From assembly GCA_014379795.1 (NCBI GenBank), contig JACMLC010000094.1, forward strand, positions 1 through 33,678: a stretch of DNA of 33,678 bases. The letters are read 5' to 3'. The notes beneath the pieces are model-generated. The model was not told the origin of the DNA and made no database searches. It worked only from the letters and a program-made list of their open reading frames with translations. The stretch is from Pyrinomonadaceae bacterium (lineage in GTDB: Bacteria > Acidobacteriota > Blastocatellia > Pyrinomonadales > Pyrinomonadaceae). Below are positions 3,710-25,109 of this stretch, one piece after another. Numbering within the stretch: position 1 is the first letter of the stretch; the number at the start of each line of letters is the position of its first letter. A program made the position numbers and the translations under genes.

Positions 3710-4087
3710 TTACTGAACAATCAGCTTGCCTCGATACATATTCATCCCGCAGGTGAACTCATACTCTCCAGGCTTCTCCGGCCTAATCTCAACCGGAACC
3801 GTTCTGTCCTGCGGCAGGTGTGCGCGTTTGCCGAAATCCGGCAGTATGACTTCCTCACCGCACGGCGTTGATTCGCGGCGCGTGAAGTTCAAGCGGAGCA
3901 CTTGTCCGGCTTTGGCTGTGATGATGGAAGGCTGGTAGCCTCCCTTGACCGTTACATCAATCTCCTGCACGCCTCGCTCCGAACTGCGCGCGGCCACTGA
4001 TTCGCCCTTCCACAACCAGAAGTACCAGATGATCCAGCCGATGATTCCAAGCCCCACGAGGGTCACGATCACATTTGTCGTATTCAT
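3710..4087 (-). CDS. Small membrane-anchored cupredoxin-like protein
   Basis: 125-aa ORF. One N-terminal TM helix (VIVTLVGLGIIGWIIWYFWLW) followed by a beta-rich domain ending EYEFTCGMNMYRGKLIV. Its ATG overlaps the stop of the upstream ATPase gene (ATGA at 4084-4087), suggesting translational coupling. Confidence 0.7.
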   Translation of the reverse strand: MNTTNVIVTLVGLGIIGWIIWYFWLWKGESVAARSSERGVQEIDVTVKGGYQPSIITAKAGQVLRLNFTRRESTPCGEEVILPDFGKRAHLPQDRTVPVEIRPEKPGEYEFTCGMNMYRGKLIVQ

Positions 4088-6393: not shown

Positions 6394-6440
6394 CCTTCCC
6401 GAAGTGTTCTTCGGCCTCGTTATCCCCTTTATTCGTCGCC

Positions 6441-6944
6441 TTACTTATTTCTCTTCTTCCTGTTTAATTTCTTCCCGACGCTCGCCGTATGTTCGACATG
6501 CGCGCCCTCTATCAGGCCGCAGATATGTCCGGGAGCTTGGCCGACGCGATCCCATTCTTCCAGCGTCACGGCGATAGATTTGCGGTAACGCTTGAGTTCA
6601 CTAATACGCTCTTCAACTTCCGCCAGACGCCGCCTAACGATCTCTCGTACTTCATCGCAAGGGCTGTGTCCCATTCGTGCGTCGTCGACAATGCGGCGAA
6701 TTTCAGCGAGCGAGAATCCGAGCGCCTGCGCCTGCTTGATAAATGCCAGCCGCTCAAGCACGTCCCGCGAATAGACGCGATAACCGCTATATGTGCGAGC
6801 GGGCTTATCCAGCAACCCGCTCTTTTCATAAAAACGGAGCGCCTCGATGCCGATGCCTGAGAGCTTGGCGACATCGCCGATCTTGAGCATCGTCTGCTGC
6901 TGCTCCTCATCTACCATCACTGTTTGTCGTGGCAGGCTCCTCAT
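6441..6944 (-). CDS. MerR-family heavy-metal-responsive transcriptional regulator (start uncertain)
   Basis: The ORF track starts at 7010, which lies inside the predicted promoter. The ATG at 6944-6942 follows GAGGAGAGAG (Shine-Dalgarno). An alternative ATG at 6890 gives MLKIGD. HTH MLKIGDVAKLSGIGIEALRFYEKSGLL, long dimerisation helix, Cys at SPCDEV and a C-terminal HICGLIEGAHVEH. Confidence 0.85.
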   Translation of the reverse strand: MRSLPRQTVMVDEEQQQTMLKIGDVAKLSGIGIEALRFYEKSGLLDKPARTYSGYRVYSRDVLERLAFIKQAQALGFSLAEIRRIVDDARMGHSPCDEVREIVRRRLAEVEERISELKRYRKSIAVTLEEWDRVGQAPGHICGLIEGAHVEHTASVGKKLNRKKRNK

Positions 6945-6978
6945 TGTGGTCTCTCTCCTCGTCCATTGAATTAGCTGT

Positions 6979-7010
6979 AGTGTAAACCCTGTAGTCGGGT
7001 ACAGTGTCAA
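6979..7010 (-). promoter_or_regulatory. MerR-type promoter/operator for the merR-copA operon
   Basis: The minus strand reads TTGACA (7010-7005), a 20-bp spacer, then TACACT (6984-6979). The spacer contains the imperfect dyad CTGTAC-CCGA-CTACAG (7004-6989). An over-long spacer with an internal dyad is the MerR-family promoter signature. Confidence 0.55.
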
Positions 7011-9899: not shown

Positions 9900-10024
9900 C
9901 TGGTAGATTAGCTTCCCTTCAAAGGGCGGTGACTTGATCCGGAGGTTATCTTTAACATAATTCTACCATTCAAGTCCCGCTCTACACCTCAATGTTTATA
10001 ATTAGCGAAAAGGATGTTTAATGC

Positions 10025-10056
10025 TTGACCCTGGAACCGATTCCAGACTTTATACT
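10025..10056 (+). promoter_or_regulatory. MerR-type promoter/operator, probably giving a leaderless merR transcript
   Basis: TTGACC (10025-10030), a 20-bp spacer, then TATACT (10051-10056). The spacer contains the perfect dyad CTGGAA-CCGA-TTCCAG (10031-10046). The ATG at 10063 lies 6 nt after the -10 hexamer. Confidence 0.55.
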
Positions 10057-10062
10057 GTTCGC

Positions 10063-10575
10063 ATGAGTGACGGTAACTCCAAGAAAGATTACTTACGAGC
10101 CGGCGAGTTGGCACGCCTGGCGGGAGTCAGCACGGACACTTTGCGTCACTATGAGCGCAAAGGAGTGCTGCCCGCTCCACGCCGCTCGCATAACAACTAC
10201 CGCCACTACCCGCCGCAGGCGCTCGAACGTGTGCGACTCGTGCGCCGCGCGCTGGTCGTCGGGTTCACGCTTGATGAACTGGCTTCTATTCTGGCGGCGC
10301 GCGATCAGGGAGGGACGCCGTGCCCTGAGGTCAGGACACTGGCTGAAGAGAAACTCTCTCAGGTCGAGACGCGGCTCAGTGAGTTGAAGATACTCAGGAA
10401 CGAACTGCGTTCCACTCTCAAGGACTGGGATATACGACTGGCTGAAACCCCTGCGGGTGAAAGGGCCGGTCTGCTTGAAGCTCTTGCTGCCAATGGTCAT
10501 GCTGCTGGCATGCAGACTTCGCCTTCCGCTTTATCCAGATTCAAATCAAAAAGTAAGAGGAGACCACGCAAATGA
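10063..10575 (+). CDS. MerR-family transcriptional regulator (second paralog)
   Basis: The ORF track starts at 10021, but that start overlaps the promoter. The ATG at 10063 gives MSDGNSKKDYLRAGELARLAGVSTDTLRHYERKGVL (HTH), followed by a coiled-coil helix. Only one Cys (GTPCPEV), so there is no classical CueR/ZntR Cys loop. Confidence 0.85.
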   Translation: MSDGNSKKDYLRAGELARLAGVSTDTLRHYERKGVLPAPRRSHNNYRHYPPQALERVRLVRRALVVGFTLDELASILAARDQGGTPCPEVRTLAEEKLSQVETRLSELKILRNELRSTLKDWDIRLAETPAGERAGLLEALAANGHAAGMQTSPSALSRFKSKSKRRPRK

Positions 10576-11111
10576 AAACCAAATACATCTTCATGGCACT
10601 TATCACAGCGTTCATGACGCTTGCGATTTCAGCTTTCACTTCATGCGCCGCGCAAGAGAAACAACAGACAGAAAGGCACAAGACAGATGGTCATTCCAAA
10701 CACTCTGACGAGATGAACAAGCGTGGGGAGCGCGAGATGGGATTCTCGCAGGCCAAGACCACTCACCACTTTCGCCTCCTTCAGGATGGCGGAGCTATCG
10801 AGGTTGAGGCTAAAGATGAGAAGGATACAGAGACTGTCAAACAAATCAAAGGGCACCTCTCACACATCGCGCAGATGTTCGGTGAAGGCAATTTCAAAGC
10901 GCCGATGCTGATACACGATCAGACGCCGCCGGGCGTGCCCGTCATGCACAATCTCAAAGCTGAAATCAGCTACCAGTATGAAGACACAATTAATGGAGGA
11001 AGAGTGCGCATCAAGACCGCTAATGCGGAGGCGCTCAGGGCCATTCACGAATTCCTGCGCTTCCAGATTAAAGAGCACGAAACCGGCGACTCATTGGATG
11101 TGGTCAAATAA
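10572..11111 (+). CDS. Secreted (lipo)protein of unknown function with a His-rich N-terminal region
   Basis: 179-aa ORF. Its ATG overlaps the merR stop (ATGA at 10572-10575). Signal MKTKYIFMALITAFMTLAISAFTSC. After the signal comes ERHKTDGHSKHSDEM, then conserved-looking blocks TTHHFRLLQDGGAIEV, GHLSHIAQMF and PPGVPVM. Confidence 0.7.
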   Translation: MKTKYIFMALITAFMTLAISAFTSCAAQEKQQTERHKTDGHSKHSDEMNKRGEREMGFSQAKTTHHFRLLQDGGAIEVEAKDEKDTETVKQIKGHLSHIAQMFGEGNFKAPMLIHDQTPPGVPVMHNLKAEISYQYEDTINGGRVRIKTANAEALRAIHEFLRFQIKEHETGDSLDVVK

Positions 11112-11459
11112 ATAACCTCCTTGCTCAGCTTCATTGGTCTTTGATACGTATAGACACTCACGATGGATGCTCTCGCTCGTGAAAAGCAGTCTTGTTTATA
11201 TTCTCGGCTTTTTGTAAATGATGGGCTGGCAATCTCCGGAGAAAAGAAACTGCGGTGTTGTTTTGCCGGGCGATACATGCAGTAGAGCGGGCGGGAGCCT
11301 CCCACAGCCCCCACCCTAAGCCCCCGACTCCTCACCCCACGCAGCCACATGCGTTCACCGGGGAGGCGAACGCAAACCGGAGACGGATCATATCGGGCAG
11401 ATGAAAATCTTGATTGTTCTCCGTATCATTAAAGTGTGTGGCACAGAGACGCCTTACAG

Positions 11460-12776
11460 TTAAGCGGAAACAGGCACTTTATCATGTTCGTGCGTGTGTG
11501 CGCCCTGCGCTGCCCCCCGGCCAAGTGCAATAGCCGCAATAGTGATGAGCAGGCAGACGATACCAGCCGCCGTAAATGTAGTGGGCGCGCCCCATCTGAC
11601 AGCGGCGTGTCCGACCGCCGGATAGGTGACGAGCCAGCAGGCGTGCGTCAACGCGAAGTGGGCTGCGTAAGCGCGCCCACGCTCCCTCTCGACCGTATGT
11701 TCTGCCAGAAGTGTCGATGACGGAATGGCGATCAGCGCCTGTCCCGCACCGTTCAATATCCAGAGGAGAGCGAAGACGAAGAGCGGCGGTTTGAGCGCGC
11801 CCGGTAAAAGGATCAATCCGAGCACGACACCGCCAAGGATGAGCGCGCGCGCAGCCCAGGCGTGCCGTCGCCCGTGCAGCACAGCGCGGTCGCGTGCGCC
11901 CTGCTCGTAACGGCCAGTCGCACGTCCCAGCATGATCGCCGCCAGCGATGAGCCGAGTCCGAGTCCTGCCATAATTACCGCGAAAGATGTTTCTCCTCGC
12001 CCGAGCACGTCACGCACATAGGCGACCGTCACGACGATGGCTGCCGCGCCGGCGGTTGCCTCTGCGAAGCTGAGCACAAGCGCCTGCCTCAGCGACGGCT
12101 CGCGCAAAAGCACGCGCGTCCCAGTCGTGATCTCCGAAAGGAAAGTGCGCAAGGAGAGCGGCGTCACGACCTTTGAGACATGCGGGACCGCAACGACAGC
12201 GACAAGCAATGCCGAGACCAAATAAGTGAAGCCGTCGAACCAGAAGACCCATCGCACGCCAAGCAGCGCCACAAGAATGCCTGCCACAGCGGGCGCAGCG
12301 ACTGCCTCTATATCTACTGCGACACGCGAAAGCGAAAGCGCCTTGACATACTGCTCATCTCCGACGATTTCAGGGATGCTCGCCTCAAAGGTCGGCGTAA
12401 AAAAAGCTGTCACGGCGTTGATGGCAAAAATCAAGGCGTAGACCTGCCATACGGTGGTGATAAATGGAAAGAGCGCCAGCAGTCCGAAACGCAGGAGATC
12501 AGCGGCGATAAGTATCTTCTTGCGGCTCAGGCGGTCGGCGATCACGCCTGCCGGTTGCGAGAAGAGGAGGAAGGCGAGGATGCGCAGCATCAGCGCATTG
12601 CCGATGACAGCCGTTGCGGATGCGCCGCCTGTGAGTTGATAGGCGAAGAGCGCAAGGCCAACCGTCGTCACACCGCTGCCAAGCAGCGAAATGATCTGCG
12701 CGCTGAACAGCAGGCGGAAGGCACGATTGCGCCAGAGCGAAATCTTCTCAACGGTTGCGGATTGGAGGTCGTCCAT
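11460..12776 (-). CDS. MFS transporter (EntS/MFS_3-like exporter) with a His-rich C-terminal tail
   Basis: 438-aa ORF, about 12 hydrophobic segments. MFS motif A: GVIADRLSRKKIL. C-terminal tail AQGAHTHEHDKVP. Starts 21 nt downstream of the RND pump gene on the same strand. Confidence 0.85.
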   Translation of the reverse strand: MDDLQSATVEKISLWRNRAFRLLFSAQIISLLGSGVTTVGLALFAYQLTGGASATAVIGNALMLRILAFLLFSQPAGVIADRLSRKKILIAADLLRFGLLALFPFITTVWQVYALIFAINAVTAFFTPTFEASIPEIVGDEQYVKALSLSRVAVDIEAVAAPAVAGILVALLGVRWVFWFDGFTYLVSALLVAVVAVPHVSKVVTPLSLRTFLSEITTGTRVLLREPSLRQALVLSFAEATAGAAAIVVTVAYVRDVLGRGETSFAVIMAGLGLGSSLAAIMLGRATGRYEQGARDRAVLHGRRHAWAARALILGGVVLGLILLPGALKPPLFVFALLWILNGAGQALIAIPSSTLLAEHTVERERGRAYAAHFALTHACWLVTYPAVGHAAVRWGAPTTFTAAGIVCLLITIAAIALGRGAAQGAHTHEHDKVPVSA

Positions 12777-12797
12777 AACGGTTGTCGCTGATACCTT

Positions 12798-15700
12798 TCA
12801 ATCCCGGGCCGGAGCAAGCTCCCGTTCTCGCGGATAGTCACGCGATGGCACTTGTGCTGTAGCGCGGCCATACTTCAGGTACAGGGCCGGAATCACGATC
12901 ATGTTGAGGAAAGTAGAAGTGACGATGCCGCCTAAGATCACGACAGCCATCGGCTGCTGAATCTCCTTGCCCGGCTCGCCCGCGCCCCACGCCAGCGGAA
13001 TTAACCCGACGCCCGTGACAATCGCCGTCATCAGGATCGGCGAAAGCCTCTCCATCGAACCCTGCACAATCGCGTCGCGAAACGGGACTCCCTCCTCCTC
13101 CATCAAATGCGTGTAATGCGAGATCAGCATGATGCCGTTGCGTGTGGCGATGCCGAACAGCGTGATGAAGCCGACGAGTGAGGCGATGGAGAGCGTTCCC
13201 CCGGAAAGGAAGACCATCACCACGCCGCCGATCAAAGCCAGCGGCAGGTTCGCCATCACCAGCGCGGCTGAGCGCGCCGATTTCAAAGCGATATAGAGCA
13301 ACAGGAAGATGCCGCCGATAGCGACGATGGAGAGCAGCGTGATGAGGCGCGAGGCTTTCTCCTGCGCCTCGAACTGCCCGCCATACTGTACGAAGTAGCC
13401 TTGCGGCAGTTGGACTTTTGTTCCGATGGCCTCGCGCACATCGTTGATGACGCTGCCCAAATCTCTATCGGCGACGTTTGCCTGAACGATGATGCGGCGC
13501 TGAACGTTCTCGCGGTTGAGGGTGTTCGGGCCTTGATCCACTCTCACTTCGGCGACCTGCCCGATAGGAACGCGCGCGCCCGTCGGCGTGTCAATCAAAG
13601 TGCGCTCGATGCTCTCCACAGATTCGCGCGACGCATCATCGTGGCGCACCAGCACGTCGTAGGTGCGCTGCTCTTCCAGGACCTGCGATGCAACGTGTCC
13701 GTTAAAGGCTGTGTCAACCGTTTCGGCTAAGTCTTCGGCTCTCAATCCGACTGCTGCTGCCGCCTGGCGGTTCATGTTGATTTGGACTTGCGGCACGCCG
13801 ACTTGCGGCTCGACGATCAGATCAACGATGCCGGGAACTCCCGCCATCTGGTCGCGTATCTCGGCAGCTTTAGTGCGTAAGGTCGCAAGGTCGGGTCCGA
13901 AAAGTTTGATGGCGATTTGCGCTCGCGTGCCTGAGAGCAGGTGGTCAATGCGGTGCGAGATGGGCTGGCCGACTTCCGCCTCGACGCCGGGGATGCGCGC
14001 GAGTCGCTGGCGCACGTCTTCCATAAACTCGGCGTGAGAGCGACTCCCCTCTTTCGTCACGACTTCGATCTCGCTGGTGTTGACGCCCGCCGCGTGCTCA
14101 TCCAATTCGGCACGCCCAGTGCGGCGAGTCGTCGAGACGACTTCAGGGACTTCATGCAGGACGGACTCGATGACATTGCCGATGCGGTTTGATTCCTTGA
14201 GGGAGGTGCCCGGCGGCATGTTGGCGTTGATGTTCAGCGTGCCTTCGTTGAACGGGGGCAGGAATTCGCGCCCCATGAACGCGAACAGCAGCATTGCGAC
14301 GAGCAGCATCGCGGCGGACGAAGCGATGATTTTATAAGGATGGCGAAGCGTCCAATTCAAGATTCGCGCGTAGCGCTTCTTCAGCCACGCGACAAGGCGT
14401 GAATCTTTCTCGTCGTGAAGCAGCTTCGAGCGACCGAGCAGGAAGTAGCAGAGCACGGGCGTCACGGTCAGCGCGACGATGAGCGAAGCCGTGATCGAGA
14501 TGATATAGGCAAAGGCGAGCGGCGCGAACATGCGACCTTCAAAGCCGCCCAAAGAGAAGAGCGGCAGGAAGACGATGACGATGATGAGCGTCGCAAAGAG
14601 GATCGAGTTTCTGATCTCGCTCGATGCGCGGAAGATGACATCTATCACGTGAGCGGGCGTCGGGCTGTGAGCGTTCTGCTTCAAACGGCGGAAGACGTTT
14701 TCGACATCTATGATCGCATCGTCCACGAGCGCGCCGATAGCGATGGCGAGGCCGCCCAAGGTCATCGTATTGATCGAAATATTGAAGTAGCTCATCACGA
14801 GAATCGCCGTGATGAGCGAGAGCGGAATCGCGGTCAAAGAGATGAACGTCGTGCGGAAGTTCCACAGGAAGAGAAACAGCACGACCGTCACCATGATGCC
14901 GCCTTCGATGATTGAAGCGCGCACGTTGCCGACAGCGCGATTGATAAAGTCGGATTGCTGGAACGCCTTCGTGTCAATCGTCACGTCCGGCGGCAGCGTC
15001 GCTTTCAAATTGGCGAGCGTCGTCTCAATCTGTTCGGTTACTTCGAGCGTGTTGGCGTTCGGCTGCTTCTGAATCGTGGCGACAACCGCCGGTTGCATGT
15101 TAAAGCTGCCGTCGCCGCGCTTCAGCGCCGCGCCCGCCTGCACCGTCGCCACGTTACTGATGAGAACGGGCACGCCGTCGCGCACGGTGATGACGGAGTT
15201 GGCGAGGTCTTCAGGCGTGTAAACGCGCGCCCGCCCTCGAATCAGGAACTCTTCGTTCGTGCGCTCAAGGAAACCGCCCGCCGCGTTCGCGTTCGAAGCC
15301 GTGACGGCTTCGACAACCTGCTCAAGCGTCAGCCCGTGATCCGCCAGCTTCGCCGGGTCAACGAGCACCTGAAACTGCTTGGTGTCGCCGCCGATAATCA
15401 TCACCTGAGAGACGCCTGTGACTCCAAGCAGGCGCGGGCGCACAGTCCAATCGGCAATCGAGCGCAACTCCATCGGTGAAGTCGTCTTGCTCGTCATCGA
15501 GATCAGCATGATCTCGCCCATCGTCGAAGAGATGGGACCCAAAACGGGCGGCGGAACTCCCGCAGGCAACCGGACTTGTTGCAATTTCTCATTGACAAGC
15601 TGGCGTGCGCGGTAGATGTCTGTGTCGAGGTTGAATTCGACGAAGACGATGGAGATGCCGATGGCCGAATTAGAGCGGACGCGATACACGCCCGCCGTCC

Positions 15701-15923
15701 CGTTCATCGCCGCTTCGATGGGCAACGTGACAAGTGATTCAACTTCCTCCGGCGCAAGACCGTGCGATTCTGTGAGAATCGTGACTGTGGGCGCAGTCAA
15801 ATCTGGGAACACATCAACCGGCGTGCGCAGCGCGACGTATCCGCCGTAGATGAGCAGCGCGACCGCCGCGATGATGACCATCAGCCGGTTACGAAGCGAC
15901 CACTGGATGATTTTATTTAACAT
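12798..15923 (-). CDS. CusA/CzcA-family heavy-metal efflux RND permease
   Basis: 1041-aa ORF. N-terminus MLNKIIQWSLRNRLMV. 12-TM RND layout with two large periplasmic loops. TM4 charged segment GALVDDAIIDVEN, typical of the HME-RND family. Confidence 0.95.
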   Translation of the reverse strand: MLNKIIQWSLRNRLMVIIAAVALLIYGGYVALRTPVDVFPDLTAPTVTILTESHGLAPEEVESLVTLPIEAAMNGTAGVYRVRSNSAIGISIVFVEFNLDTDIYRARQLVNEKLQQVRLPAGVPPPVLGPISSTMGEIMLISMTSKTTSPMELRSIADWTVRPRLLGVTGVSQVMIIGGDTKQFQVLVDPAKLADHGLTLEQVVEAVTASNANAAGGFLERTNEEFLIRGRARVYTPEDLANSVITVRDGVPVLISNVATVQAGAALKRGDGSFNMQPAVVATIQKQPNANTLEVTEQIETTLANLKATLPPDVTIDTKAFQQSDFINRAVGNVRASIIEGGIMVTVVLFLFLWNFRTTFISLTAIPLSLITAILVMSYFNISINTMTLGGLAIAIGALVDDAIIDVENVFRRLKQNAHSPTPAHVIDVIFRASSEIRNSILFATLIIVIVFLPLFSLGGFEGRMFAPLAFAYIISITASLIVALTVTPVLCYFLLGRSKLLHDEKDSRLVAWLKKRYARILNWTLRHPYKIIASSAAMLLVAMLLFAFMGREFLPPFNEGTLNINANMPPGTSLKESNRIGNVIESVLHEVPEVVSTTRRTGRAELDEHAAGVNTSEIEVVTKEGSRSHAEFMEDVRQRLARIPGVEAEVGQPISHRIDHLLSGTRAQIAIKLFGPDLATLRTKAAEIRDQMAGVPGIVDLIVEPQVGVPQVQINMNRQAAAAVGLRAEDLAETVDTAFNGHVASQVLEEQRTYDVLVRHDDASRESVESIERTLIDTPTGARVPIGQVAEVRVDQGPNTLNRENVQRRIIVQANVADRDLGSVINDVREAIGTKVQLPQGYFVQYGGQFEAQEKASRLITLLSIVAIGGIFLLLYIALKSARSAALVMANLPLALIGGVVMVFLSGGTLSIASLVGFITLFGIATRNGIMLISHYTHLMEEEGVPFRDAIVQGSMERLSPILMTAIVTGVGLIPLAWGAGEPGKEIQQPMAVVILGGIVTSTFLNMIVIPALYLKYGRATAQVPSRDYPRERELAPARD

Positions 15924-15979
15924 GACGTACAGCCTTCAGCTCTCATGTGACAGGACTTGTCCTCCTCCTGCTGGAGTGT

Positions 15980-17416
15980 TTATGTTTCATGCGAATGCAC
16001 GCCCGCATCTGCCGGTCGCAGTTCCTGCAACCTGACCTGATAAGCTCCCTGCGTGACGACGCGCTCGCCGGGGTTGAGACCGGAAAGAATCGCCACATGA
16101 GGCCCGTACTCGTCACCAACCGTCACTTCGCGCCGTTGGAACTCTTCGCCCGATAGGAGCACGTACACGATCTTTTTGCCTTCGTTATCGAGCACTGCTT
16201 CTTTCGGGATCATCATCGCCGTGACCGACTCGCCCGCATCCAGTCGCACGTTGGCCTGCATTCCGATGCGCAGAGCGCGTCCGGCATTCGGCACCTGAAA
16301 GACGACTGTGGCCGCGCGCGTCTTTTCGTCAATCACCGCGCCCACGTCCAACACGACGCCCTTGAATTCCTGTTCCGGGTAAGCGGCTGTCGTGAAAGTC
16401 GCTGAGACGTTTCCGCCCAGGCGATTTAAGTCTCGCTCGAAGATAGGAGCTTCAATCCACACCGTATCAAGATTGCTGATCTCAAGGATGGTTTCGCCCG
16501 GCGCGACCTGTTCGCCAATGGACTTGTTGACTTTCGTCACGTAGCCACCCAAAGGGGCGCGCACGGTATAACTGGAATTTGCGCTCCCGATTTGTGCATT
16601 CGCCGGGGCGACAGAGCGTGCCGAGACAAGCGCATCTCTGCGTTTGACTGCGGCGTTGTATGCTGCCTGCGCTGAATTGCGTTCAGCATCAGCGGCCTGC
16701 AATTGTCTTTGCGAGAATGCCTTTCGTTCATAGAGACGCTCTGCTCGCTCGGCCTCCTTCTGTGCCAGATCAAGCCGCACGCGCGCTGTGTCTACTTCGC
16801 CCGCCGCTGACCGCCGCTCGCCTTCAAGCCTCGCGTTCTCGACGGCAATCTGTGCATTCTGCGCCTGAACTGACGCCGCCGCCGCGCGCACCTGCGCCTG
16901 TTCGGCGGAGGTTGCTATCTGCTGCACAACGGCAATGGTCTGTCCCTGCGAGACGCGCTGACCGACGCGTGGCATCTGGTTGCCCGCGAGGATGCCGCTG
17001 ACGGGCGGCGCCACCAACGCCTGGCTGTTGGCCGCCGGCACGACCCGCCCTGTGGCGGTGATCTGCCGCGCGACCGTATGCTCTTCAACCTGCGCGAGCT
17101 TCAGGCGAATGAGCCACTGCTGCTCCATCAGGAACTTGACAGTGCCGGTCGGATTAGCGGCAGCCGGAGCTTCCGCCATCTCCTTCTTCCCCGCGCCGCG
17201 TAGAAAAAAGATATAGACGAGCGCGAAGAGCGCCACGAGCGCCACCGCCGCGACGATCAATAACCGGTTACGGTTTGAGGCGGCAGGCGAAGTCTCTTTC
17301 ACAATCGTCGTCTCTTCTTGCTCGATACGAGCTTCGCGTGTGTCTTCCGTGGAATGTTCGACACTGTGCTCAAGTTCACTTTCCTGAACCTGCTCGTCGG
17401 TTGTCGGTCTGCTCAT
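15980..17416 (-). CDS. RND efflux periplasmic adaptor (CusB/CzcB, HlyD family)
   Basis: 478-aa ORF. Acidic N-terminal extension, one TM anchor (LLIVAAVALVALFALVYIFFL), an alpha-hairpin region rich in A/Q/R, and beta-barrel domains. Its start overlaps the upstream OMF stop by 4 nt (17413-17416). Confidence 0.9.
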   Translation of the reverse strand: MSRPTTDEQVQESELEHSVEHSTEDTREARIEQEETTIVKETSPAASNRNRLLIVAAVALVALFALVYIFFLRGAGKKEMAEAPAAANPTGTVKFLMEQQWLIRLKLAQVEEHTVARQITATGRVVPAANSQALVAPPVSGILAGNQMPRVGQRVSQGQTIAVVQQIATSAEQAQVRAAAASVQAQNAQIAVENARLEGERRSAAGEVDTARVRLDLAQKEAERAERLYERKAFSQRQLQAADAERNSAQAAYNAAVKRRDALVSARSVAPANAQIGSANSSYTVRAPLGGYVTKVNKSIGEQVAPGETILEISNLDTVWIEAPIFERDLNRLGGNVSATFTTAAYPEQEFKGVVLDVGAVIDEKTRAATVVFQVPNAGRALRIGMQANVRLDAGESVTAMMIPKEAVLDNEGKKIVYVLLSGEEFQRREVTVGDEYGPHVAILSGLNPGERVVTQGAYQVRLQELRPADAGVHSHET

Positions 17417-18705
17417 TGTTTGATGTCCACTCCTGTCGCCAGCTCTAGCTGAAAAATACTCGTTTGATAATCGAATAAGGCGCGGTAATAGTTGACCCTC
17501 ACCTCGGAGCGCGTGCGCTGCGCGTCAAGCAACGTGATTAATTCCACGACGCCTTCCCGGTAAGCGGCAAGCTGTATGTCGCGGGACTCATCGGCCTGTT
17601 TGAGCAATCCGGTCTCGTAAGCCTTCACCTGCTCGCGCGCAGTTTCGTAAGCCCGATAAGCGGATTCGACTTCCGCCAGCGCGCGGTTGCGCGTTAATAG
17701 AAGATTCGTTTCGGTGACTCGGCGCTCGGCCTCTGCTCGCGCGATGCCCCCTTGATTCCGGTTGCCGAAAGGCAGAGGCACAGTCACACCGGCCAGCGCG
17801 GTATTATCCCGCCCGACCTTGCGATAGCCGACGAACGGCGTGATCTCGCCTTTCGCCCGCGAACGCTCCAATTGGAAGACTGATTCGGCGCGCGCCACCT
17901 CTGCTTCGGCCACCTTGATGTCGGGACGATTCGCGAGCGCCGTCCGGCGCAGTTGTTCAAGGTCAAGAGTGGTGTCACGGATTTCAAGTGTGCCGGCCAC
18001 GTCGAGCATGGCCGCTCGCCCATAATCAGTCTCGCCCAGAAGCTCCAGCAGTCGAACATTCGATTGACGCAGGGCGAGCGTGGCCTGAGCGATGGTCGAA
18101 TCGTACTTGACCCTCTCAAGCCGCACACGTAGCAACTCACCTTCGGCGATGTAGCCCTCCTCGAAGCGAACGGTGTTGAAGCGCACTAGCTCCGCGAAGT
18201 TGTCGCGATTCTCACGCTCTATGTTTAGGATGGTGCGCGCTAGGATCGTCTCGTAATAGGTGCGCCGTAGCTCGAACAGCCTGCGCCTGAGTACGTCCGT
18301 CAACTGAGCCTCCGCCACGGCGACTGTGCGTTCGGCGAGCTCAGCGCGTCGCTCCCGGCGGTTGCCGAGTTCGATGGGCTGCGCGACGGTGACTCCGACC
18401 TCGTAGAGATTATTAAATTGCGTCGGGCCGGAAACTCGCAGGTTCTCCGCGCTGACCGTCAATCCCGGACGCGGGAAAAGGCGCGCACTGATTCTTTCGG
18501 TTCCGGCGACGCCGACTTCGAGACGTGCGGCTTCCAACGCGAGGTTGCGTCGCATGAATTGCTCGGTCGCAGCTTCCAGAGTCAGGACACCGCTATCCTG
18601 CGTGAGCGGCAGCGAAGACGGCCCAGTAGCTGTTTGTGCCAGAGCCGAGACAGTCAGCCAGACTACGAGCACGATGATTGCTAACAATCGGAAAAATTTC
18701 GTCAC
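17413..18705 (-). CDS. TolC-family outer membrane factor (CzcC/CusC-like)
   Basis: 430-aa ORF. Signal peptide MTKFFRLLAIIVLVVWLTVSALA. OMF motif FGNRNQGGIARAEAE. Two-repeat coiled architecture. Confidence 0.9.
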   Translation of the reverse strand: MTKFFRLLAIIVLVVWLTVSALAQTATGPSSLPLTQDSGVLTLEAATEQFMRRNLALEAARLEVGVAGTERISARLFPRPGLTVSAENLRVSGPTQFNNLYEVGVTVAQPIELGNRRERRAELAERTVAVAEAQLTDVLRRRLFELRRTYYETILARTILNIERENRDNFAELVRFNTVRFEEGYIAEGELLRVRLERVKYDSTIAQATLALRQSNVRLLELLGETDYGRAAMLDVAGTLEIRDTTLDLEQLRRTALANRPDIKVAEAEVARAESVFQLERSRAKGEITPFVGYRKVGRDNTALAGVTVPLPFGNRNQGGIARAEAERRVTETNLLLTRNRALAEVESAYRAYETAREQVKAYETGLLKQADESRDIQLAAYREGVVELITLLDAQRTRSEVRVNYYRALFDYQTSIFQLELATGVDIKQ

Positions 18706-18714
18706 GGTTTGGAT

Positions 18715-19197
18715 CTACTCCACCTTGAAATCGGTTAAAGCCATCCGCTCGTCGAGCTTTTCATTCCTGATGTGAAACTCGATGTCGTAATCTCCCGCAC
18801 TCGGAATATTCACGTCTGCGACATAAATACCAGTCACTTTGCCGATGCGAGCTTTGATTTGCGCGACTTCCACGCCACCTTTGGCGCGTACGGAGAGCGT
18901 CACTTCCGCTTTCTCCACCGGTGTACCGTCTGAAAGATCGGTCAGGTGAATCAGAAACTGGCTTTGCTTTCCGGCTTTGAGAGGGTCGTACTCGAAGAAG
19001 TTTTCGATGCGGTTCGTAAACTCTGTACGAGCGAGGGCTTCCTCTTCAGGTTCGTCCTTTGCCTTCGGCTCTGCGCCACAAGCCCCTAAGCTGATTACCG
19101 CGAGCGCAAAAGCCATCAACATCATAAGACGACAGGCGGTAGTTTTTAAGGGCTTACTAAATGTGAATTGAAATGGCTTCAACAAACCGATCCTCAC
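18715..19197 (-). CDS. Lipoprotein with an Ig-like (YtkA/FixH-like?) domain; start uncertain
   Basis: 160-aa ORF from a GTG that overlaps the M56 stop by 1 nt (TAGTG). Alternative ATGs at 19125, 19122 and 19116. Lipobox ISLGAC. Beta-rich domain: FLIHLTDLSDGTPVEKAEVTLSVRAKGG...GDYDIEFHI. Confidence 0.6.
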   Translation of the reverse strand: MRIGLLKPFQFTFSKPLKTTACRLMMLMAFALAVISLGACGAEPKAKDEPEEEALARTEFTNRIENFFEYDPLKAGKQSQFLIHLTDLSDGTPVEKAEVTLSVRAKGGVEVAQIKARIGKVTGIYVADVNIPSAGDYDIEFHIRNEKLDERMALTDFKVE

Positions 19198-20279
19198 TAT
19201 TTAATAAACTGGATGATGGATTCTGCCGCCGTATGCACGGCGAGCGGCGCGTAGATGGCGGCTGCGAAGAGTGTCGTTGTAAAAACGGCAGCGATAAAGA
19301 GCGCCTCCGCATTTTGCGTTTTAGACAGTAGTCGGGCGTGTGCCTGTGTCGGCACCGCGTCGGCTAAACGGACGAGACGGCGCACGCGGCGCTCGACGCT
19401 TGGCGAATCGTCTGGAACAAACCCTGAAGCCAGAGCATCCGCCGGTCTGTTCTCGTTTGAGGTGAGAGTTTGCCGTCGCAGTTTGACAAGGGCGGAAGCC
19501 ACCTCCAGCGGAGCGGACGTGCGCCCTGCCGCTATCTCATCGCAGATCAACTCCACTTCCGCGCCGCGCCATCTCAGAATCAGACGCGAGAGCGGGAACG
19601 CAAGCGAGGCATAGCTTAGAGCGGACAGCAGTAGTTTTGCCAGATTGTCTCGACGCGTGTGGTGCGCCGCTTCGTGCTCAAGGACACCGGCTAACTCCGC
19701 CGGAGTCAGCGTGCGAAGCAGCCCGGAGGAGAGCACGAGTTTCGAGCGCCAGAAGCCCCACACGAAGGTGAACGGGTAGTCGCTCATCACAAGCCCAACG
19801 TCAAGGGCATGACGAGCCGCAGTTTGTTCGACAAGGGAGACTTGCCCCGGCGGCGGCGGGGCTGCATTCATTTCCAGTTTTTGAATCACCCGACCAACAC
19901 GCATGGAGCCGCGAATACTGGACCAGCACGCAAACAAGGCAGCACAGACCGCAAATGAAACGGTCGCGTAAGCAAGCATCGGATTAAGCTTTGCGGTCAA
20001 GTCGCTCAGGAGATGCAAGTCATGCAAGGGCGCGGTGTGCGCGGCGCGAAACGACGCTTCGCCGAGCCATGATTCAGGCAAGAGCGCGGTCGCGACGATC
20101 CACGCGGCTAAAACGGGCGGAAGAGCGAGCGTGACTGTGTAAAGGCGCGTTAAAGTGTGCGGATGGGGTTTCCAATATCCGTTCGCTGAGAGTGCTCGCG
20201 ACGACCAGGCGAAGACAAAGCCCACCAGCGCAAGCAGGGTGCTGAAGAGAATGAAATTTTCGACGGCTATAATAAACAC
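19197..20279 (-). CDS. M56-family (BlaR1/MecR1-like) membrane metalloprotease lacking an extracellular sensor domain
   Basis: 360-aa ORF. Several TM segments. Zinc motif HEXXH within LEHEAAHHTRRDN. The protein ends 12 aa after the last TM (ALFIAAVFTTTLFAAAIYAPLAV). No penicillin-binding-type domain. Confidence 0.85.
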   Translation of the reverse strand: MFIIAVENFILFSTLLALVGFVFAWSSRALSANGYWKPHPHTLTRLYTVTLALPPVLAAWIVATALLPESWLGEASFRAAHTAPLHDLHLLSDLTAKLNPMLAYATVSFAVCAALFACWSSIRGSMRVGRVIQKLEMNAAPPPPGQVSLVEQTAARHALDVGLVMSDYPFTFVWGFWRSKLVLSSGLLRTLTPAELAGVLEHEAAHHTRRDNLAKLLLSALSYASLAFPLSRLILRWRGAEVELICDEIAAGRTSAPLEVASALVKLRRQTLTSNENRPADALASGFVPDDSPSVERRVRRLVRLADAVPTQAHARLLSKTQNAEALFIAAVFTTTLFAAAIYAPLAVHTAAESIIQFIK

Positions 20280-20294
20280 TATGAACGCCTTTGC

Positions 20295-20744
20295 TTACTC
20301 GCTCGTGCTCTTACCTAGCTCGCGCCGTTTTTCCCGGATCATCTCTTCGAGCTGATTGAGCGCGCCCGCATCCTCACCAACCAGATCAACGAAAGCGGAA
20401 AGCGCGGGTTCCGTGAATTGACCGAGGAGCGCGCCCAAAACTTCCTGCGCCACGCCGCGCTCGAACTCTTCGCGCGTGTAGCGCGGCGTATAGACAAACG
20501 CCTTGCCCTGCTTCTCGCGCAAGAGATACCCTTTGCGGTGCATCCGGTCGAGCGTCGTCAACACGGTGGTGTGCGCGCTTCCGCGCCGCTGCCGCAGGTG
20601 TTCTTCGACCTCGTTGACGGTCTGCCCGGGAGCGCGCCACAGCACTTCCATGACCGCCGTCTCAAGCTCGCCGAGCACATGACCTGCGCCACGCGCGCCG
20701 GGCTTGAAACCGCGAAGTGTGATTTTAGGGTGAATACGATGCAT
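20295..20744 (-). CDS. BlaI/MecI/CopY-family winged-helix transcriptional repressor
   Basis: The ORF track starts at 20861, which runs through the promoter. The ATG at 20744 gives MHRIHPKITLRG...; an alternative GTG at 20678 gives (M)LGELE. Family pattern LGELETAVMEVLW...TVNEV...AHTTVLTTLDRMHRKGYLLREKQGKAFVYTP. No C-terminal CxCxxxxCxC motif. Confidence 0.85.
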   Translation of the reverse strand: MHRIHPKITLRGFKPGARGAGHVLGELETAVMEVLWRAPGQTVNEVEEHLRQRRGSAHTTVLTTLDRMHRKGYLLREKQGKAFVYTPRYTREEFERGVAQEVLGALLGQFTEPALSAFVDLVGEDAGALNQLEEMIREKRRELGKSTSE

Positions 20745-20786
20745 CAGAATATTTTCCCCTTCTCTGGACAACAAGGGAGAGAGCAG

Positions 20787-20820
20787 AGTATAAGAACCCA
20801 CATTAACTATTGTCAATAGT
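20787..20820 (-). promoter_or_regulatory. Sigma70-like promoter with an overlapping 15-bp perfect palindromic operator (copy A)
   Basis: Palindrome ACTATTGTCAATAGT (20806-20820). On the minus strand it contains the -35 TTGACA (20816-20811), followed by an 18-bp spacer and TATACT (20792-20787). Confidence 0.65.
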
Positions 20821-20868
20821 CGAAAAGCAAGAGGAGCAAAACCGGTCTCAGAGAAACGCATCTACACT

Positions 20869-21288
20869 ATGTTAATCGCACTCTTAACACTCTTCTTGTG
20901 GAGCTTTCTCGCCGCCACGGTGCTGCCGCTCAGCTCGGAAGCCCCTCTCATCGTCTACGTGCGCTCCTACCACCAGATAACGATTCCGGTGCTGGTGGCG
21001 ACTGTCGGGAACTACTTTGGCGCATGTACGACCTACTGGCTCGCACGGCGCACGGCTCAGGCTCTTGGCAGAGGACAGGAGGCGGCGAACAGTACGACTC
21101 GAAGCGCCAGGCTCATGCGTCGTTTCGGCCAACCCATCTTACTCCTCTCATGGGTGCCGGTCCTCGGCGACGCGCTTGTCGCCCTTGCCGGCGCGATGAG
21201 AATGCCTTTCGGGGTCTTCTCGCTCTGGATAGCCATCGGCAAGGGGCTTCGCTATCTGGCAGTGGCGTGGGCGGCTTCCGCCGTGTAG
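20869..21288 (+). CDS. YqaA-family (DedA-related) small inner-membrane protein
   Basis: 139-aa ORF. From memory it is collinear with E. coli YqaA: FLAATVLPLSSE..., GNYFG, LLLSWVPVLGD, AIGKGLRYLAVA. Divergent from the blaI-like gene, 48 nt from the palindrome. Confidence 0.8.
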   Translation: MLIALLTLFLWSFLAATVLPLSSEAPLIVYVRSYHQITIPVLVATVGNYFGACTTYWLARRTAQALGRGQEAANSTTRSARLMRRFGQPILLLSWVPVLGDALVALAGAMRMPFGVFSLWIAIGKGLRYLAVAWAASAV

Positions 21289-21441
21289 AGAAGATACAAA
21301 GCGCCACTCAACGCCATTATTACGGCCTCGCTCAGAAAGATGCGCCGGACACGCTTTTGTCCGCAGCCGGGACGGACAAAGCCGGAGTCATGACACGTCC
21401 GAGAAGCTCAGACGCTGCATGACAGCAGAAGGTTTATTCCC

Positions 21442-22065
21442 CTATACCACACGCTTGATGCTACGGTACTGACCGTTGGTCTTGAGCGTGATGGTTACTT
21501 CCGTCTCGGTGCGATTGCGCCAAAACCAACCGTGATTACCATCAAAGGGAGCGATCAGCTCGCCCGAGTCACGTTCGACCGCTCTGCCCTTGCTGAAGCT
21601 GTGGGAGGCGCCGCCCGGGCCATCCCCGTGAGTGTCATGATTTACGGGGCCGCCGGCGCTCGCCCATTCGTAGCTGGCTTTTGCGTCCTTCGACATCTCC
21701 AGCTTAATTTCGGCGCCCTCGCCGGGCTTTAGCGTGACGGTCATCTCGTCCTTCCTCAAAGCGCCGTCAGCCCCCTTCGGCGTCTGGGAAAGGGCGGTAG
21801 AAGCATCCGCTGATTGCTCAGGGGCAGGCCGTGAAGCGCCGGCAGTTCTATCCTTTTCAGCCTCGGCAGCTAGGGCCATTTTAATCTCACCCATTTGTGT
21901 CAGCCCGAGCACTCGGCCAATGCGGGTCGGGTCAATGCCATACTCACTTGGCAAAACAACTGTCACGAGGAGCACCGTGGCAACGATCATGGCAATGACG
22001 GTCGAACGCAGAAGTTGCTTGCTGCTGGGCAATTCGGCGCGGGTTGGAAGGTCGCTGTTATACAT
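21442..22065 (-). CDS. Single-pass membrane-anchored protein of unknown function, co-transcribed with HupE/UreJ
   Basis: 207-aa ORF. TM helix STVIAMIVATVLLVTVVLP, an Ala/Pro-rich linker, and a C-terminal beta-rich domain with His residues (VNHDTHGDGPGGASH, FDGNHGWFW). Starts 34 nt downstream of the hupE-like stop. Confidence 0.6.
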   Translation of the reverse strand: MYNSDLPTRAELPSSKQLLRSTVIAMIVATVLLVTVVLPSEYGIDPTRIGRVLGLTQMGEIKMALAAEAEKDRTAGASRPAPEQSADASTALSQTPKGADGALRKDEMTVTLKPGEGAEIKLEMSKDAKASYEWASAGGPVNHDTHGDGPGGASHSFSKGRAVERDSGELIAPFDGNHGWFWRNRTETEVTITLKTNGQYRSIKRVV

Positions 22066-22099: not shown

Positions 22100-22834
22100 T
22101 TATGAGACGAAATAGCCGGTGAGCTGGTAGCCGATGAGCATGAAACCGGCGATCATCATGATGACATTGGCGGTGTAAGCGTGTCGCAGAAAGCTGTCAG
22201 TGCGTCGCCAGTAGCCCATCACGATCAGGATCGTGGCGAGCGCCAGCAGTTGACCGATTTCGACGCCCACATTGAAAGCCAGCATATTGGGTATCAAGCC
22301 GTCCCTAGATAGCTCATACTCCTGAATCTTCGTCGCCAAACCGAAGCCGTGGAAGAGGCCGAAGATGAGTGTCGCCGCTTTTGTATTCGGCTGCACACCG
22401 AACCAACGCTGGAAAGCGCCGATGTTGTCGAGCGCCTTGTAGACGACCGATAGACCGATGATCGCGTCAATCAAGTAGCCGCTGATATTGGTGCCGAAGT
22501 AGACTCCCAGCAGCATCGTCGAAGAATGACCGATGGCAAAGAGGCTGACGTACACGCCGATGTCCTTGAGCTTGTAGAGGAAGAAGATCACACCTAACAG
22601 AAAAAGGATGTGGTCGTACCCTGTGAACATGTGCTTAGCGCCAAGATAAATGAAGGGCAGGATATTCACTCCGGTGATTTCCTGGATGTAACCCTTGTCC
22701 CCTTCGGCAACGCCGTGGGCATAAGTTGTGGCGCTAAATAGAAAAAAGCAGAACAGGCCAGCGAACACTGACAAGACGGAATACTGTCGTCGCGCACACG
22801 ACCAGCGCCGTCTCAATGAAAGCGGTAAATGCAT
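22100..22834 (-). CDS. HupE/UreJ-family metal (Ni/Co-type) transporter
   Basis: The ORF track starts at 22870, but the ATG at 22834 follows GGAGA (SD, 5-nt gap). The signal peptide ends FSATTYA, then HGVAEGD, which would leave a mature N-terminal His typical of the family. Motifs GYDHILFLLGVIFF and FHGFGLA. Confidence 0.85.
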   Translation of the reverse strand: MHLPLSLRRRWSCARRQYSVLSVFAGLFCFFLFSATTYAHGVAEGDKGYIQEITGVNILPFIYLGAKHMFTGYDHILFLLGVIFFLYKLKDIGVYVSLFAIGHSSTMLLGVYFGTNISGYLIDAIIGLSVVYKALDNIGAFQRWFGVQPNTKAATLIFGLFHGFGLATKIQEYELSRDGLIPNMLAFNVGVEIGQLLALATILIVMGYWRRTDSFLRHAYTANVIMMIAGFMLIGYQLTGYFVS

Positions 22835-22850
22835 AACAATCTCCGAAGAT

Positions 22851-22925
22851 TTATGGAATTGTGGCCGCATTCAGCAGCCGAAAACAGACAAGGGAGAAGT
22901 GTATTTTAGGGTGAATACGACGCAT
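22851..22925 (-). other. 24-codon upstream ORF (MRRIHPKIHFSLVCFRLLNAATIP) paralogous to the first 8 codons of the blaI-like gene
   Basis: My own translation. The ATG at 22925 is preceded by AGGAG with a 7-nt gap. The first 8 codons match MHRIHPKI at 20744. Whether it is translated is unknown. Confidence 0.3.
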
Positions 22926-22965
22926 CGGGATACTCCTATATCTGGACCTCAAAAGGAGAGGGCAG

Positions 22966-23000
22966 AGTATAAAGCTCCTATCAACTATTGTCAATAGTTG
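22966..23000 (-). promoter_or_regulatory. Sigma70-like promoter with an overlapping 19-bp perfect palindromic operator (copy B)
   Basis: Palindrome CAACTATTGTCAATAGTTG (22982-23000). The minus strand reads -35 TTGACA (22994-22989), a 17-bp spacer, then TATACT (22971-22966). Confidence 0.7.
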
Positions 23001-24925: not shown

Positions 24926-25109
24926 ACGCTCTGACCTTTTCATTTAAGATGCGTTCGCACTACCCACTACCGAAAATATGTTGCCGCGCTGCCGCAGAGT
25001 TTGTTATCCTCCCCGCATCGCTTCAGTCTTCACGGTGCGTCTCTACGCGACTCTTCAGATTCGCGCCGACTCAGCATTTCTATTTCCTTCACTCTGTGAG
25101 GTATCCTCA

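Follow-up and report, generated by a model that had tools for sequence, protein, structure and literature searches.

The window analysed here is a 33,678-nt stretch of DNA, contig JACMLC010000094.1 (assembly GCA_014379795.1), from a Pyrinomonadaceae bacterium, a soil acidobacterium. It contains seven consecutive, closely spaced minus-strand genes (11460-20744) that begin with a BlaI/MecI/CopY-family repressor and an M48/M56 membrane zinc protease and continue into a heavy-metal efflux pump of the resistance-nodulation-division (RND) family. A palindromic dyad, its position in the promoter of this operon and the synteny of related loci argue strongly, on comparative grounds, for direct control of the pump genes by the BlaI-like protein, and it is very likely that the repressor controls the operon through this dyad. 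The full mechanism, in which a metal-resistance regulon is switched by metal-triggered proteolysis, is proposed with less assurance and is considered probable. The system appears to be a proteolytic switch of the PetRP/BlaIR type that has been recruited to heavy-metal RND efflux and equipped with a His-based periplasmic site.

Operon structure and predicted operators

The operon was delineated from open reading frame (ORF) coordinates and family searches. Its genes, in order from the promoter, are as follows.

20295-20744, minus strand: BlaI/MecI/CopY-family repressor (blaI), 149 aa; PF03965, E 1.5e-25
19197-20279, minus strand: M48/M56 membrane zinc protease, 360 aa; PF01435 41.4 bits, PF05569 30.9 bits
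18715-19197, minus strand: YtkA-like lipoprotein (ytkA; maximal ORF); PF13115, E 7e-6; lipobox LGAC
17413-18705, minus strand: outer-membrane factor (OMF), TolC/OEP family; PF02321, E 1.5e-42
15980-17416, minus strand: periplasmic adaptor (membrane fusion protein, MFP), CzcB/CusB-like; HlyD_D23, TIGR01730
12798-15923, minus strand: CusA/CzcA-family RND pump; TIGR00914, 890.7 bits vs a cut-off of 701.45
11460-12776, minus strand: NreB-like major facilitator superfamily (MFS) transporter, the final operon gene; MFS_1/MFS_3, TIGR00900

These coordinates and family matches bear out the initial annotation, which had described seven same-strand genes with these assignments and with tight or overlapping junctions. 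From blaI to the MFS gene the junctions are 15 nt, an overlap, 9 nt, a 4-nt overlap, 56 nt and 21 nt; the stop codon of the protease gene overlaps or abuts ytkA. The start of ytkA is likely to be a TTG at 19185, behind a GAGGA Shine-Dalgarno motif, and the other candidate is an ATG at 19125. The upper limit of the operon had been placed at 20861, which is the end of a maximal blaI ORF that reads through the promoter. Translation of blaI most likely begins at the ATG at 20744, where the orthologues also start, giving a protein of 149 aa.

A split operon was considered and rejected. A promoter scan of 11000-21500 found no convincing internal promoter, the single match within the operon being weak (9/12, at 19121-19149), and a scan of the operon found no convincing internal terminator, terminator-like matches occurring at shuffle level only. 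Independent regulation by a riboswitch or other known RNA element was also rejected, as an Rfam scan of the whole window returned neither.

The only strong promoter-like site in 11000-21500 is P_blaI, upstream of blaI, and its -35 hexamer lies inside a palindrome, O1, which reads ACTATTGTCAATAGT on the plus strand and ACTATTGACAATAGT on the minus strand and has the arms ACTAY and RTAGT. This palindrome had been pointed out previously and proved to be real: the pattern ACTAY-N5-RTAGT has two matches in the window and none in 100 shuffles. Because the -35 hexamer is inside the palindrome, bound repressor would occlude it. Two further sites, O2 and O3, were located, the former in front of a second, two-gene operon (hupE2-orf207). 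The regulatory features and this second operon are as follows.

20806-20820, minus strand: predicted operator dyad O1, a perfect dyad with arms kept among relatives
20787-20816, minus strand: sigma-70-type promoter P_blaI (TTGACA, 18 nt, TATACT; 11/12 matches)
19129-19143, minus strand: operator-like site O3, ACTACCGCCTGTCGT, with 9/10 arm positions, between the protease stop codon and the ytkA lipobox
22984-22998, minus strand: predicted operator dyad O2, a second exact copy of the O1 15-mer
~22966-22994, minus strand: promoter P_hupE2 (TTGACA, 17 nt, TATACT), its -35 overlapped by O2
22851-22925, minus strand: remnant of a blaI 5' end (MRRIHPKI...), downstream of O2
22100-22870, minus strand: HupE_UreJ_2 membrane protein (hupE2; maximal ORF, alternative ATG at 22834); PF13795, E 1e-54
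21442-22065, minus strand: orf207, a membrane-anchored periplasmic protein of 207 aa; family searches without a match

Conservation was examined in 71 genome loci and three metagenome loci, with synteny judged only in the 40 loci that have at least 6.6 kb of downstream sequence. Homologues of the protease are found in Acidobacteriota of the class Blastocatellia, mainly in Pyrinomonadaceae, and the closest named genome is a Pyrinomonadaceae metagenome-assembled genome (MAG) whose proteins are 81-97% identical to those of the window. The order BlaI, M56, YtkA, (OMF), MFP, RND is retained wherever the contig is long enough: the YtkA, MFP and RND genes are co-directional in 40/40 long loci and the OMF gene in 35/40, and the MFS gene is found in some related loci only. 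Five loci (L052, L056, L060, L068 and L070) carry the Blastocatellia-type cassette in MAGs titled Clostridia, Heliomicrobium, Heliobacteriaceae or Actinomycetota, which are probably mis-binned or mislabelled.

Of 64 related Blastocatellia loci, 61 have a perfect ACTAY-N5-RTAGT dyad no more than 130 nt ahead of blaI. Dyads with an altered centre (e.g., ACTACAGCCTGTAGT) still retain both arms, which argues for selection on the dyad itself and not on the -35 alone. The junction between the protease gene and ytkA also carries a perfect dyad in 27/66 loci, where it is non-coding and lies just upstream of the ytkA ribosome-binding site; these loci form a more diverged clade with a longer spacer at this junction. 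The remaining 39/66 loci, the window included, have a 9/10 variant of the dyad at the same place. Across ~1 Mb of related loci, the pattern has 62 matches ahead of blaI, 27 at the M56-ytkA junction, 7 ahead of hupE2 and one elsewhere.

These observations argue for control of the pump by the repressor, since the dyad overlaps the -35, is conserved in 61/64 loci and heads a gene order kept in 40/40, and since, in 27/66 relatives, a third dyad stands before the pump genes. The proposal in the initial annotation that a BlaI/M56 pair controls the pump therefore gains comparative support from the upstream dyads, the synteny and the 27/66 junction dyads; we infer the cleavage step and the signal.

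The predicted regulon is also larger than first described. In an alignment, P_hupE2 and P_blaI scarcely differ from the dyad up to around the tenth blaI codon and diverge after it, which indicates that P_hupE2 arose by duplication of P_blaI. The exact O2 copy in this paralogous promoter ahead of hupE2-orf207 implies that the regulon reaches beyond 11460-20861, so that the extent originally given was too small: a second promoter at ~22966-22998 heads HupE_UreJ_2 and orf207. The interval 22851-22998 is either a clear example of a regulon growing by promoter duplication or the scar of a lost second blaI-M56 copy. Among relatives, orf207 is always paired with HupE_UreJ_2. The pair adjoins the cassette in ten other loci, clearly upstream of blaI in six and downstream of the RND gene in three, and the dyad precedes the hupE2 homologue in seven loci.

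The repressor and its partner protease

The repressor matches PF03965 with 90.2 bits (cut-off 22.6) over profile positions 1-114 of 115, and its best solved relative is Mycobacterium tuberculosis BlaI (2G9W, E 3e-13). The CopY model TIGR02698 scores weakly, with 51.7 bits against a cut-off of 122. Direct sensing of the CopY type was rejected, because the CxCx4CxC motif is absent and the repressor is Cys-free. The repressor had been described as lacking the CopY Cys motif, and in fact it contains no Cys at all, as do 52 of its 67 orthologues. Among its N-terminal His residues, H2 and H5 vary and H22 is not kept; H58, in the winged helix-turn-helix domain, is Asn in proteobacterial relatives. 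A conserved 23-aa N-terminal extension (PKITLRGFKPG; residues 1-23, 20676-20744) precedes the winged-helix domain and is absent from proteobacterial and staphylococcal relatives. Phe118 aligns, at an ungapped offset of +16, with MecI Phe102, the position of the scissile Phe of BlaI and MecI. It lies within an ALS[AT]FVDLVG stretch that is conserved in the 67-orthologue alignment, and the P1 residue is Ala or Thr, not Asn.

Family scans place the protease among M48/M56, HtpX-like proteins. Hydropathy indicates transmembrane (TM) segments at residues ~1-32, 45-69, 98-123 and 323-349, with a weaker peak at 216-235 inside the protease domain, and the HExxH domain is thereby located between TM3 and TM4, in the four-TM layout of BlaR1 and MecR1. 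From the charge distribution, loop 70-97 and the C-terminal tail would both face the periplasm, which is the arrangement of BlaR1. The catalytic motifs H202-E203-xx-H206 (HEAAH) and C246-D247-E248 (CDE) are invariant in 69 sequences. The sole conserved His, Cys or Met positions in these 69 orthologues are H202, H206, H207, C246, H81, H86, H89 and H349; none of the invariant residues is a Met, and the only invariant Cys is C246, beside the catalytic D247 and E248. The invariant non-catalytic His residues are all in the predicted periplasm, with H81, H86 and H89 in the TM2-TM3 loop (69/69) and H349, accompanied by E353, at the exit of TM4.

No transpeptidase, penicillin-binding or other extracytoplasmic ligand-binding domain was found in the protease, which ends 11 residues past TM4. 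The absence of a penicillin-binding sensor, which had been noted at the outset, was thus confirmed, and beta-lactam sensing was rejected on this ground. Searches of the PDB by sequence and profile returned a short HtpX match only, and BlaR1 was reached by fold alone: the top Foldseek matches of a low-confidence model of the protease are the Staphylococcus aureus BlaR1 structures 8EXS, 8EXT, 8EXQ and 8EXP (E 3e-4 to 6e-3).

The pair was compared with known systems. Its closest classical counterparts are BlaI/BlaR1 and MecI/MecR1 of S. aureus and BlaI/BlaR of M. tuberculosis, with which it shares the repressor family and fold, the succession of repressor and protease, and a promoter dyad; by the ungapped offset, a conserved Phe also falls at the scissile position of BlaI and MecI. 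Unlike BlaR1 and MecR1, the window protease has no penicillin-binding (class D beta-lactamase-like) sensor domain. The cargo of the staphylococcal and mycobacterial systems is a beta-lactamase or PBP2a, whereas here it is a metal pump, and, unlike in the Bla and Mec systems, the order of repressor then protease is co-directional with the cargo. The operator also differs, being TACAnnTGTA in the Bla/Mec systems. CopY and TcrY of Firmicutes belong to the same protein family as the window repressor, but have the CxCx4CxC motif and no partner protease.

Heavy-metal RND pumps are, in textbook accounts, controlled by two-component, extracytoplasmic function (ECF)-sigma or MerR/ArsR systems. No description of a BlaI/M56-controlled metal pump was found, although the literature searched was incomplete and this is absence of evidence only. 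The claim that such a regulatory logic is unusual consequently stands in part: it is unreported for metal pumps in the literature found, but it has a copper-responsive precedent in PetR/PetP.

PetR/PetP of Synechocystis sp. PCC 6803 (slr0240/slr0241) is the only characterised metal-responsive BlaI/BlaR-type system that was found. It consists of a BlaI/CopY-family factor and an adjacent, co-transcribed four-TM M48/M56 protease without a sensor domain; degradation of PetR needs both copper and PetP. M53 and M58 of the TM2-TM3 loop are the candidate copper ligands of PetP, and the PetR site, GAC-N5-GTC, serves a regulon of petE, petJ and two small genes. The PetRP paper also mentions an interaction that involves the TM2-TM3 loop of BlaR/MecR. 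A 2023 review describes PetRP as lacking a downstream copper-homeostasis response and says that what BlaR homologues do in heterotrophs has yet to be worked out.

The window pair resembles PetRP, as described, in having a BlaI-family factor without the CopY Cys motif next to a co-oriented, sensor-less M48/M56 protease, in having its candidate ligands in the TM2-TM3 loop, and in having a dyad with a 5-nt centre near the -35. It differs in its cargo, which is metal efflux in place of a plastocyanin/cytochrome c6 switch, and in its candidate ligands, which are three His together with a C-terminal His and Glu in place of two Met. The operators are also distinct (ACTAY-N5-RTAGT and GAC-N5-GTC), and the TM segments of PetP end near residue 278, whereas the window protease is 360 aa long.

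The following mechanism is proposed. In the absence of inducer, a dimer of the Cys-free repressor would sit on ACTAY-N5-RTAGT and block the -35 at both P_blaI, which would drive blaI, the M56 gene, ytkA and the OMF, MFP, RND and MFS genes, and P_hupE2, which would drive HupE_UreJ_2 and orf207; O3, before ytkA, would serve as a weaker third repressor site. A divalent transition metal in the periplasm would bind the His cluster formed by H81, H86 and H89 of the TM2-TM3 loop and by H349 and E353. The sensor domain of BlaR1 lies C-terminal to TM4. Metal binding would activate the cytoplasmic HExxH domain, which would cut the repressor in its dimerisation region near A117/F118. Both promoters would then open, and the His-rich tripartite RND pump and accessory transporters would be made. 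As blaI and the M56 gene are the first genes of the operon, the system would be self-resetting, returning to its initial state once the pump had lowered the periplasmic metal.

Related cassettes, pump class and the inducing signal

Cassettes outside Acidobacteria were sought by tblastn of plasmids with the repressor, followed by gene-context look-up. The order BlaI, M56, OMF, MFP, RND is also present on Glaciecola pGLAAG01 and Shewanella baltica pSBP1, on the conjugative Pseudomonas aeruginosa megaplasmid p2017-45-85, in Pusillimonas caeni and on the chromosome of Alteromonas sp. M12. A survey of BlaI-M56-czc linkage, which the initial annotation had recommended, therefore recovers the same gene order in Glaciecola, Shewanella, Alteromonas, Pusillimonas and a P. 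aeruginosa plasmid. The arrangement is less singular than had been suggested, being conserved across Blastocatellia and recurring in Gamma- and Betaproteobacteria. In Alteromonas, the RND gene is followed by HupE_UreJ_2 (60% identical to that of the window) and then by an orf207 homologue (34%, E 9e-37). These proteobacterial cassettes carry automatic annotation only, and no published study of proteobacterial BlaI-M56-czcCBA cassettes was found in literature searches.

The proteobacterial pumps are of the classic CzcA type, with the DFG-DGA-VEN motif, and are 33-37% identical to the window pump, which is NieA-like; the regulatory pair thus travels with different classes of heavy-metal efflux (HME) pump. 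The proteobacterial cassettes also lack the YtkA-like lipoprotein and the MFS gene, both of which the window has. The proteobacterial and window proteases are ~26% identical (hhalign probability 97.5%, E 8.5e-12). When the P. aeruginosa M56 protein was searched against plasmids by tblastn, only itself was recovered. A profile built from three M56 proteins heading czcCBA-type operons gave a set of 77 proteobacterial M56 proteins. The only invariant non-catalytic His residues in this set are H87 and H98, in the TM2-TM3 loop, and H319, with E323, after TM4. The periplasmic His residues of the proteobacterial and window proteases are therefore in the same two places. The proteobacterial dyad, AAACCGAT...ATCGGTTT, differs in sequence from that of the window and is likewise positioned around a TTGAC -35.

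A broader proposal follows the same lines: that BlaR-type proteases which lack a sensor domain and bear a cluster of periplasmic His (in the TM2-TM3 loop and in H-x3-E after TM4) are cross-phylum, one-step metal sensors that induce HME-RND pumps and HupE_UreJ_2/orf207 by destroying a BlaI-type repressor. We consider the chances of this being correct to be evenly balanced.

Identity to the window was calculated across loci L004-L072, and is 78-95% for the RND pump, 49-86% for the OMF and 38-81% for the protease. The RND pump is far more conserved than the protease and OMF, and HupE_UreJ_2 is 60% identical between Acidobacteria and Alteromonas, a pattern that points either to strong constraint or to horizontal transfer of parts of the module. 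The neighbours of other BlaI-M56 pairs differ: a beta-lactamase in Legionella, and copper or P-type ATPase genes in Rhodococcus and Meiothermus. Downstream of two more distant pairs, in L086 (2936-6492) and L087 (6501-10452), lies the gene for a TonB-dependent receptor, with one for a TonB_C protein as well in L087; the BlaI-M56 switch may also control outer-membrane uptake systems.

The class of the window pump was examined by alignment with ZneA and CusA and by its motifs. It matches ZneA with E 5.7e-174 and CusA with E 7.7e-161. The CusA triad M573/M623/M672 is replaced by N/T/H, and a CusA-type Cu(I)/Ag(I) pump was rejected because the Met triad is missing. Of the ZneA proximal-site residues, E136 and E610 are Glu in the window pump, D602 is Ala, and D654 and D658 are replaced by H657 and H661. 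The characteristic motifs are AIGALVDDAIIDVEN in TM4, DEHAAGVN and SHRIDH, and the residues H610, H657, D660, H661 and, in TM4, D401/D402 are invariant in 45 pump orthologues. A classic CzcA pump (HME1/2) was also rejected, as TM4 reads AIGALVDDAIIDVEN and not DFG-DGA-VEN. The pump had been called czcCBA-type; membership of the CusA/CzcA family (TIGR00914) agrees with that label, but the signature motifs are NieA-like and not those of CzcA.

By these motifs the window pump is probably a member of the NieA-like, His-rich HME-RND class. It resembles NieA and the HME5 pumps (NrsA and CopA of Synechocystis) in its TM4 of the AIG..DDA..VEN type and in its proximal-site His motifs. NieA has HAEGVH and HRLDH, and the window pump has HAAGVN and HRIDH; HRIDH is invariant, and in the first motif the second His of HAEGVH is replaced by Asn. 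His residues also recur in the co-operonic transport proteins: the adaptor ends in ...AGxH[ST]HET in all complete orthologues (HSHET in the window), and the tail of the MFS transporter is His-rich (AHTHEH). This transporter is 38% identical (E 3e-51) to a protein annotated 'putative NreB'. The operon nrsBACD likewise ends in an MFS gene, nrsD, and its regulators are NrsRS and InrS. In the literature found, the regulators of NieA-/HME5-type systems were not described as BlaI/M56. The lipobox Cys of the YtkA-like protein (C40 of the maximal ORF) is invariant.

Nickel or cobalt is tentatively favoured as the inducer, because the candidate ligands are His, Glu and Asp without Met or Cys, the pump motifs are NieA-like, the MFS transporter is NreB-like and a HupE/UreJ-related partner is present. 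Zinc and Cu(II) are also possible inducers. In the published classification, HME1 pumps act on Co/Zn/Cd and HME2 pumps on Co/Ni, and the DFG-DGA-VEN motif is assigned to divalent cations.

Several observations weigh against metal-triggered proteolysis as proposed here. That the repressor binds the dyad, that the His cluster binds metal, that the protease cuts the repressor and which metal is involved are all points that we infer from sequence. In the window, one position in a conserved arm of O3 is mismatched, and the site may belong to the part of ytkA that encodes the signal peptide. The Pfam M56 score of the protease, 30.9 bits, is just below the cut-off of 31, and its M48 score is higher (41.4 bits vs a cut-off of 20.3). 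The AlphaFold2 (AF2) model of the protease, made from 12 sequences, is of low confidence (pLDDT 62) and was not used to judge whether the His residues cluster in space. Two MerR-family regulators are encoded near the operon (6441-7010 and 10021-10575). With respect to the metal, nickel export is proposed for NieA (nieIC-cep-nieBA, Cupriavidus neocaledonicus; HAEGVH/HRLDH class), but its substrate is listed as not determined. Copper genes are present in the window (a YHS P-type ATPase, a cupredoxin and a CopL-like protein), a multicopper oxidase lies beside the cassette of locus L002, and the closest plasmid RND homologues (~52% identity) are found among copper-binding, DUF305 and DUF411 genes.

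The last of these points lead to the strongest alternative, that the architecture is as proposed but the inducer is copper (Cu+ or Cu2+), as in PetR/PetP, and the cassette is a unit of a copper island. PetP is copper-responsive, the copper genes of the window extend over 3120-7010 and include a MerR-family regulator, and in L002 the multicopper oxidase is joined by a P-type ATPase and a cupredoxin immediately upstream of the cassette. The ~52% identical plasmid homologues are in copper-type islands, and the copper-acting CopA of Synechocystis is a member of the related class HME5. However, the pump lacks the CusA Met triad, and the protease has no invariant Met and its sole invariant Cys is beside the catalytic site; Cu(I) is a poorer match for His, Glu and Asp ligands than borderline divalent ions are. 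The NreB-like MFS transporter and the HupE/UreJ-related partner point to nickel or cobalt, and the proteobacterial versions have DFG-DGA-VEN CzcA pumps, a motif assigned to divalent cations. A copper-induced version is therefore regarded as unlikely, although it fares better than the remaining alternatives.

A further alternative is improbable: that the pump serves in a general stress response and that what the BlaI/M56 pair detects is not a metal but, for example, damage to the envelope, membrane proteins that have misfolded or a toxic organic compound. In its favour, the match of the protease to the quality-control proteases of the HtpX/M48 type is no worse than that to M56, the distant BlaI-M56 pairs are linked to unrelated cargo (e.g., TonB-dependent receptors), and classical BlaR1 senses an organic ligand. 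Against this, in both phyla and with both HME classes the cassette carries, without exception, a heavy-metal-type RND pump whose His motifs are invariant; the conserved periplasmic residues of the protease are His and Glu, typical metal ligands; and the protease has no extracytoplasmic ligand-binding domain.

Still less probable is direct binding of metal by the repressor, as in CopY, with the protease either clearing released or damaged repressor or acting as a metal-independent anti-repressor. CopY-type members of the family do sense metal directly, and the conserved 23-aa N-terminal extension could be cited in favour of such a role, but most orthologues (52/67) are Cys-free, H2, H5 and H22 are not conserved, H58 is replaced by Asn in proteobacterial relatives, and the conserved candidate ligands are on the protease, on its periplasmic side. 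Finally, that blaI-M56 is an autoregulated pair lying upstream by chance of a pump with its own promoter and regulator, for instance a nearby MerR, is very improbable: two MerR-family genes are in the window, a homologue of the 10021-10575 MerR and its neighbour orf179 is close to the cassette in L023 and L027, and the weak 9/12 match at 19121-19149 could serve as a promoter, but the M56 stop codon overlaps or abuts ytkA, synteny is kept in 40/40 loci across M56 identities of 38-81%, the M56-ytkA spacer, where present, carries a BlaI-type dyad and not a MerR-type site, the nearer MerR gene (10021-10575) is convergent with the operon end and ~10 kb from the operon promoter, and MerR genes are not consistently near the cassette.

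Neighbouring genes and implications

An adjacent copper-type island occupies 1282-7010 on the minus strand, and a similar gene set adjoins the cassette in locus L002. Its genes are as follows.

1282-2979, minus strand: OEP-family outer-membrane protein
3120-3590, minus strand: CopL-like protein
3710-4087, minus strand: cupredoxin
4084-6393, minus strand: P-type ATPase with an N-terminal YHS domain
6441-7010, minus strand: MerR-family regulator

Between this island and the operon, 10021-11111 encodes the second MerR-family protein and orf179, a 179-aa exported, His-rich protein with no family match; the two genes are convergent with the operon end and the pair is near the cassette in L023 and L027. 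A small membrane-protein gene on the plus strand (20869-21288) lies between orf207 and the blaI promoter. By eye its product is YqaA/DedA-like, and it has no NCBIfam match. In L004 and L025 the homologue of this gene instead precedes hupE2, and gene order has thus been rearranged locally. Further from the operon, ferritin-like (PF12902) proteins of 1026 aa (24978-28058, plus strand) and 464 aa (30163-31557, minus strand) are encoded, with a VTT/DedA protein and a TonB-dependent receptor fragment nearby.

If the broader proposal above is correct, it would constitute a third route for the control of heavy-metal RND pumps, beside two-component systems and ECF-sigma/MerR regulators. PetRP, the only characterised metal-responsive member of the group, governs photosynthetic electron carriers and not resistance. 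The system would also offer a tractable model for transmembrane signalling by BlaR-like proteases that have no sensor domain, and the invariant periplasmic His residues supply a hypothesis, accessible to mutation, for how the many BlaR1-like proteases without a penicillin-binding domain may perceive their signals. For soil bacteria in which manipulation is difficult, the conserved dyad offers a ready-made reporter. The cassette is conserved throughout a class of Acidobacteria that is abundant in soil, and it recurs in Proteobacteria of marine and clinical origin, one copy being on a conjugative P. aeruginosa megaplasmid; its occurrence across these groups suggests that this regulatory logic is probably widespread and has been overlooked because the genes are annotated generically.

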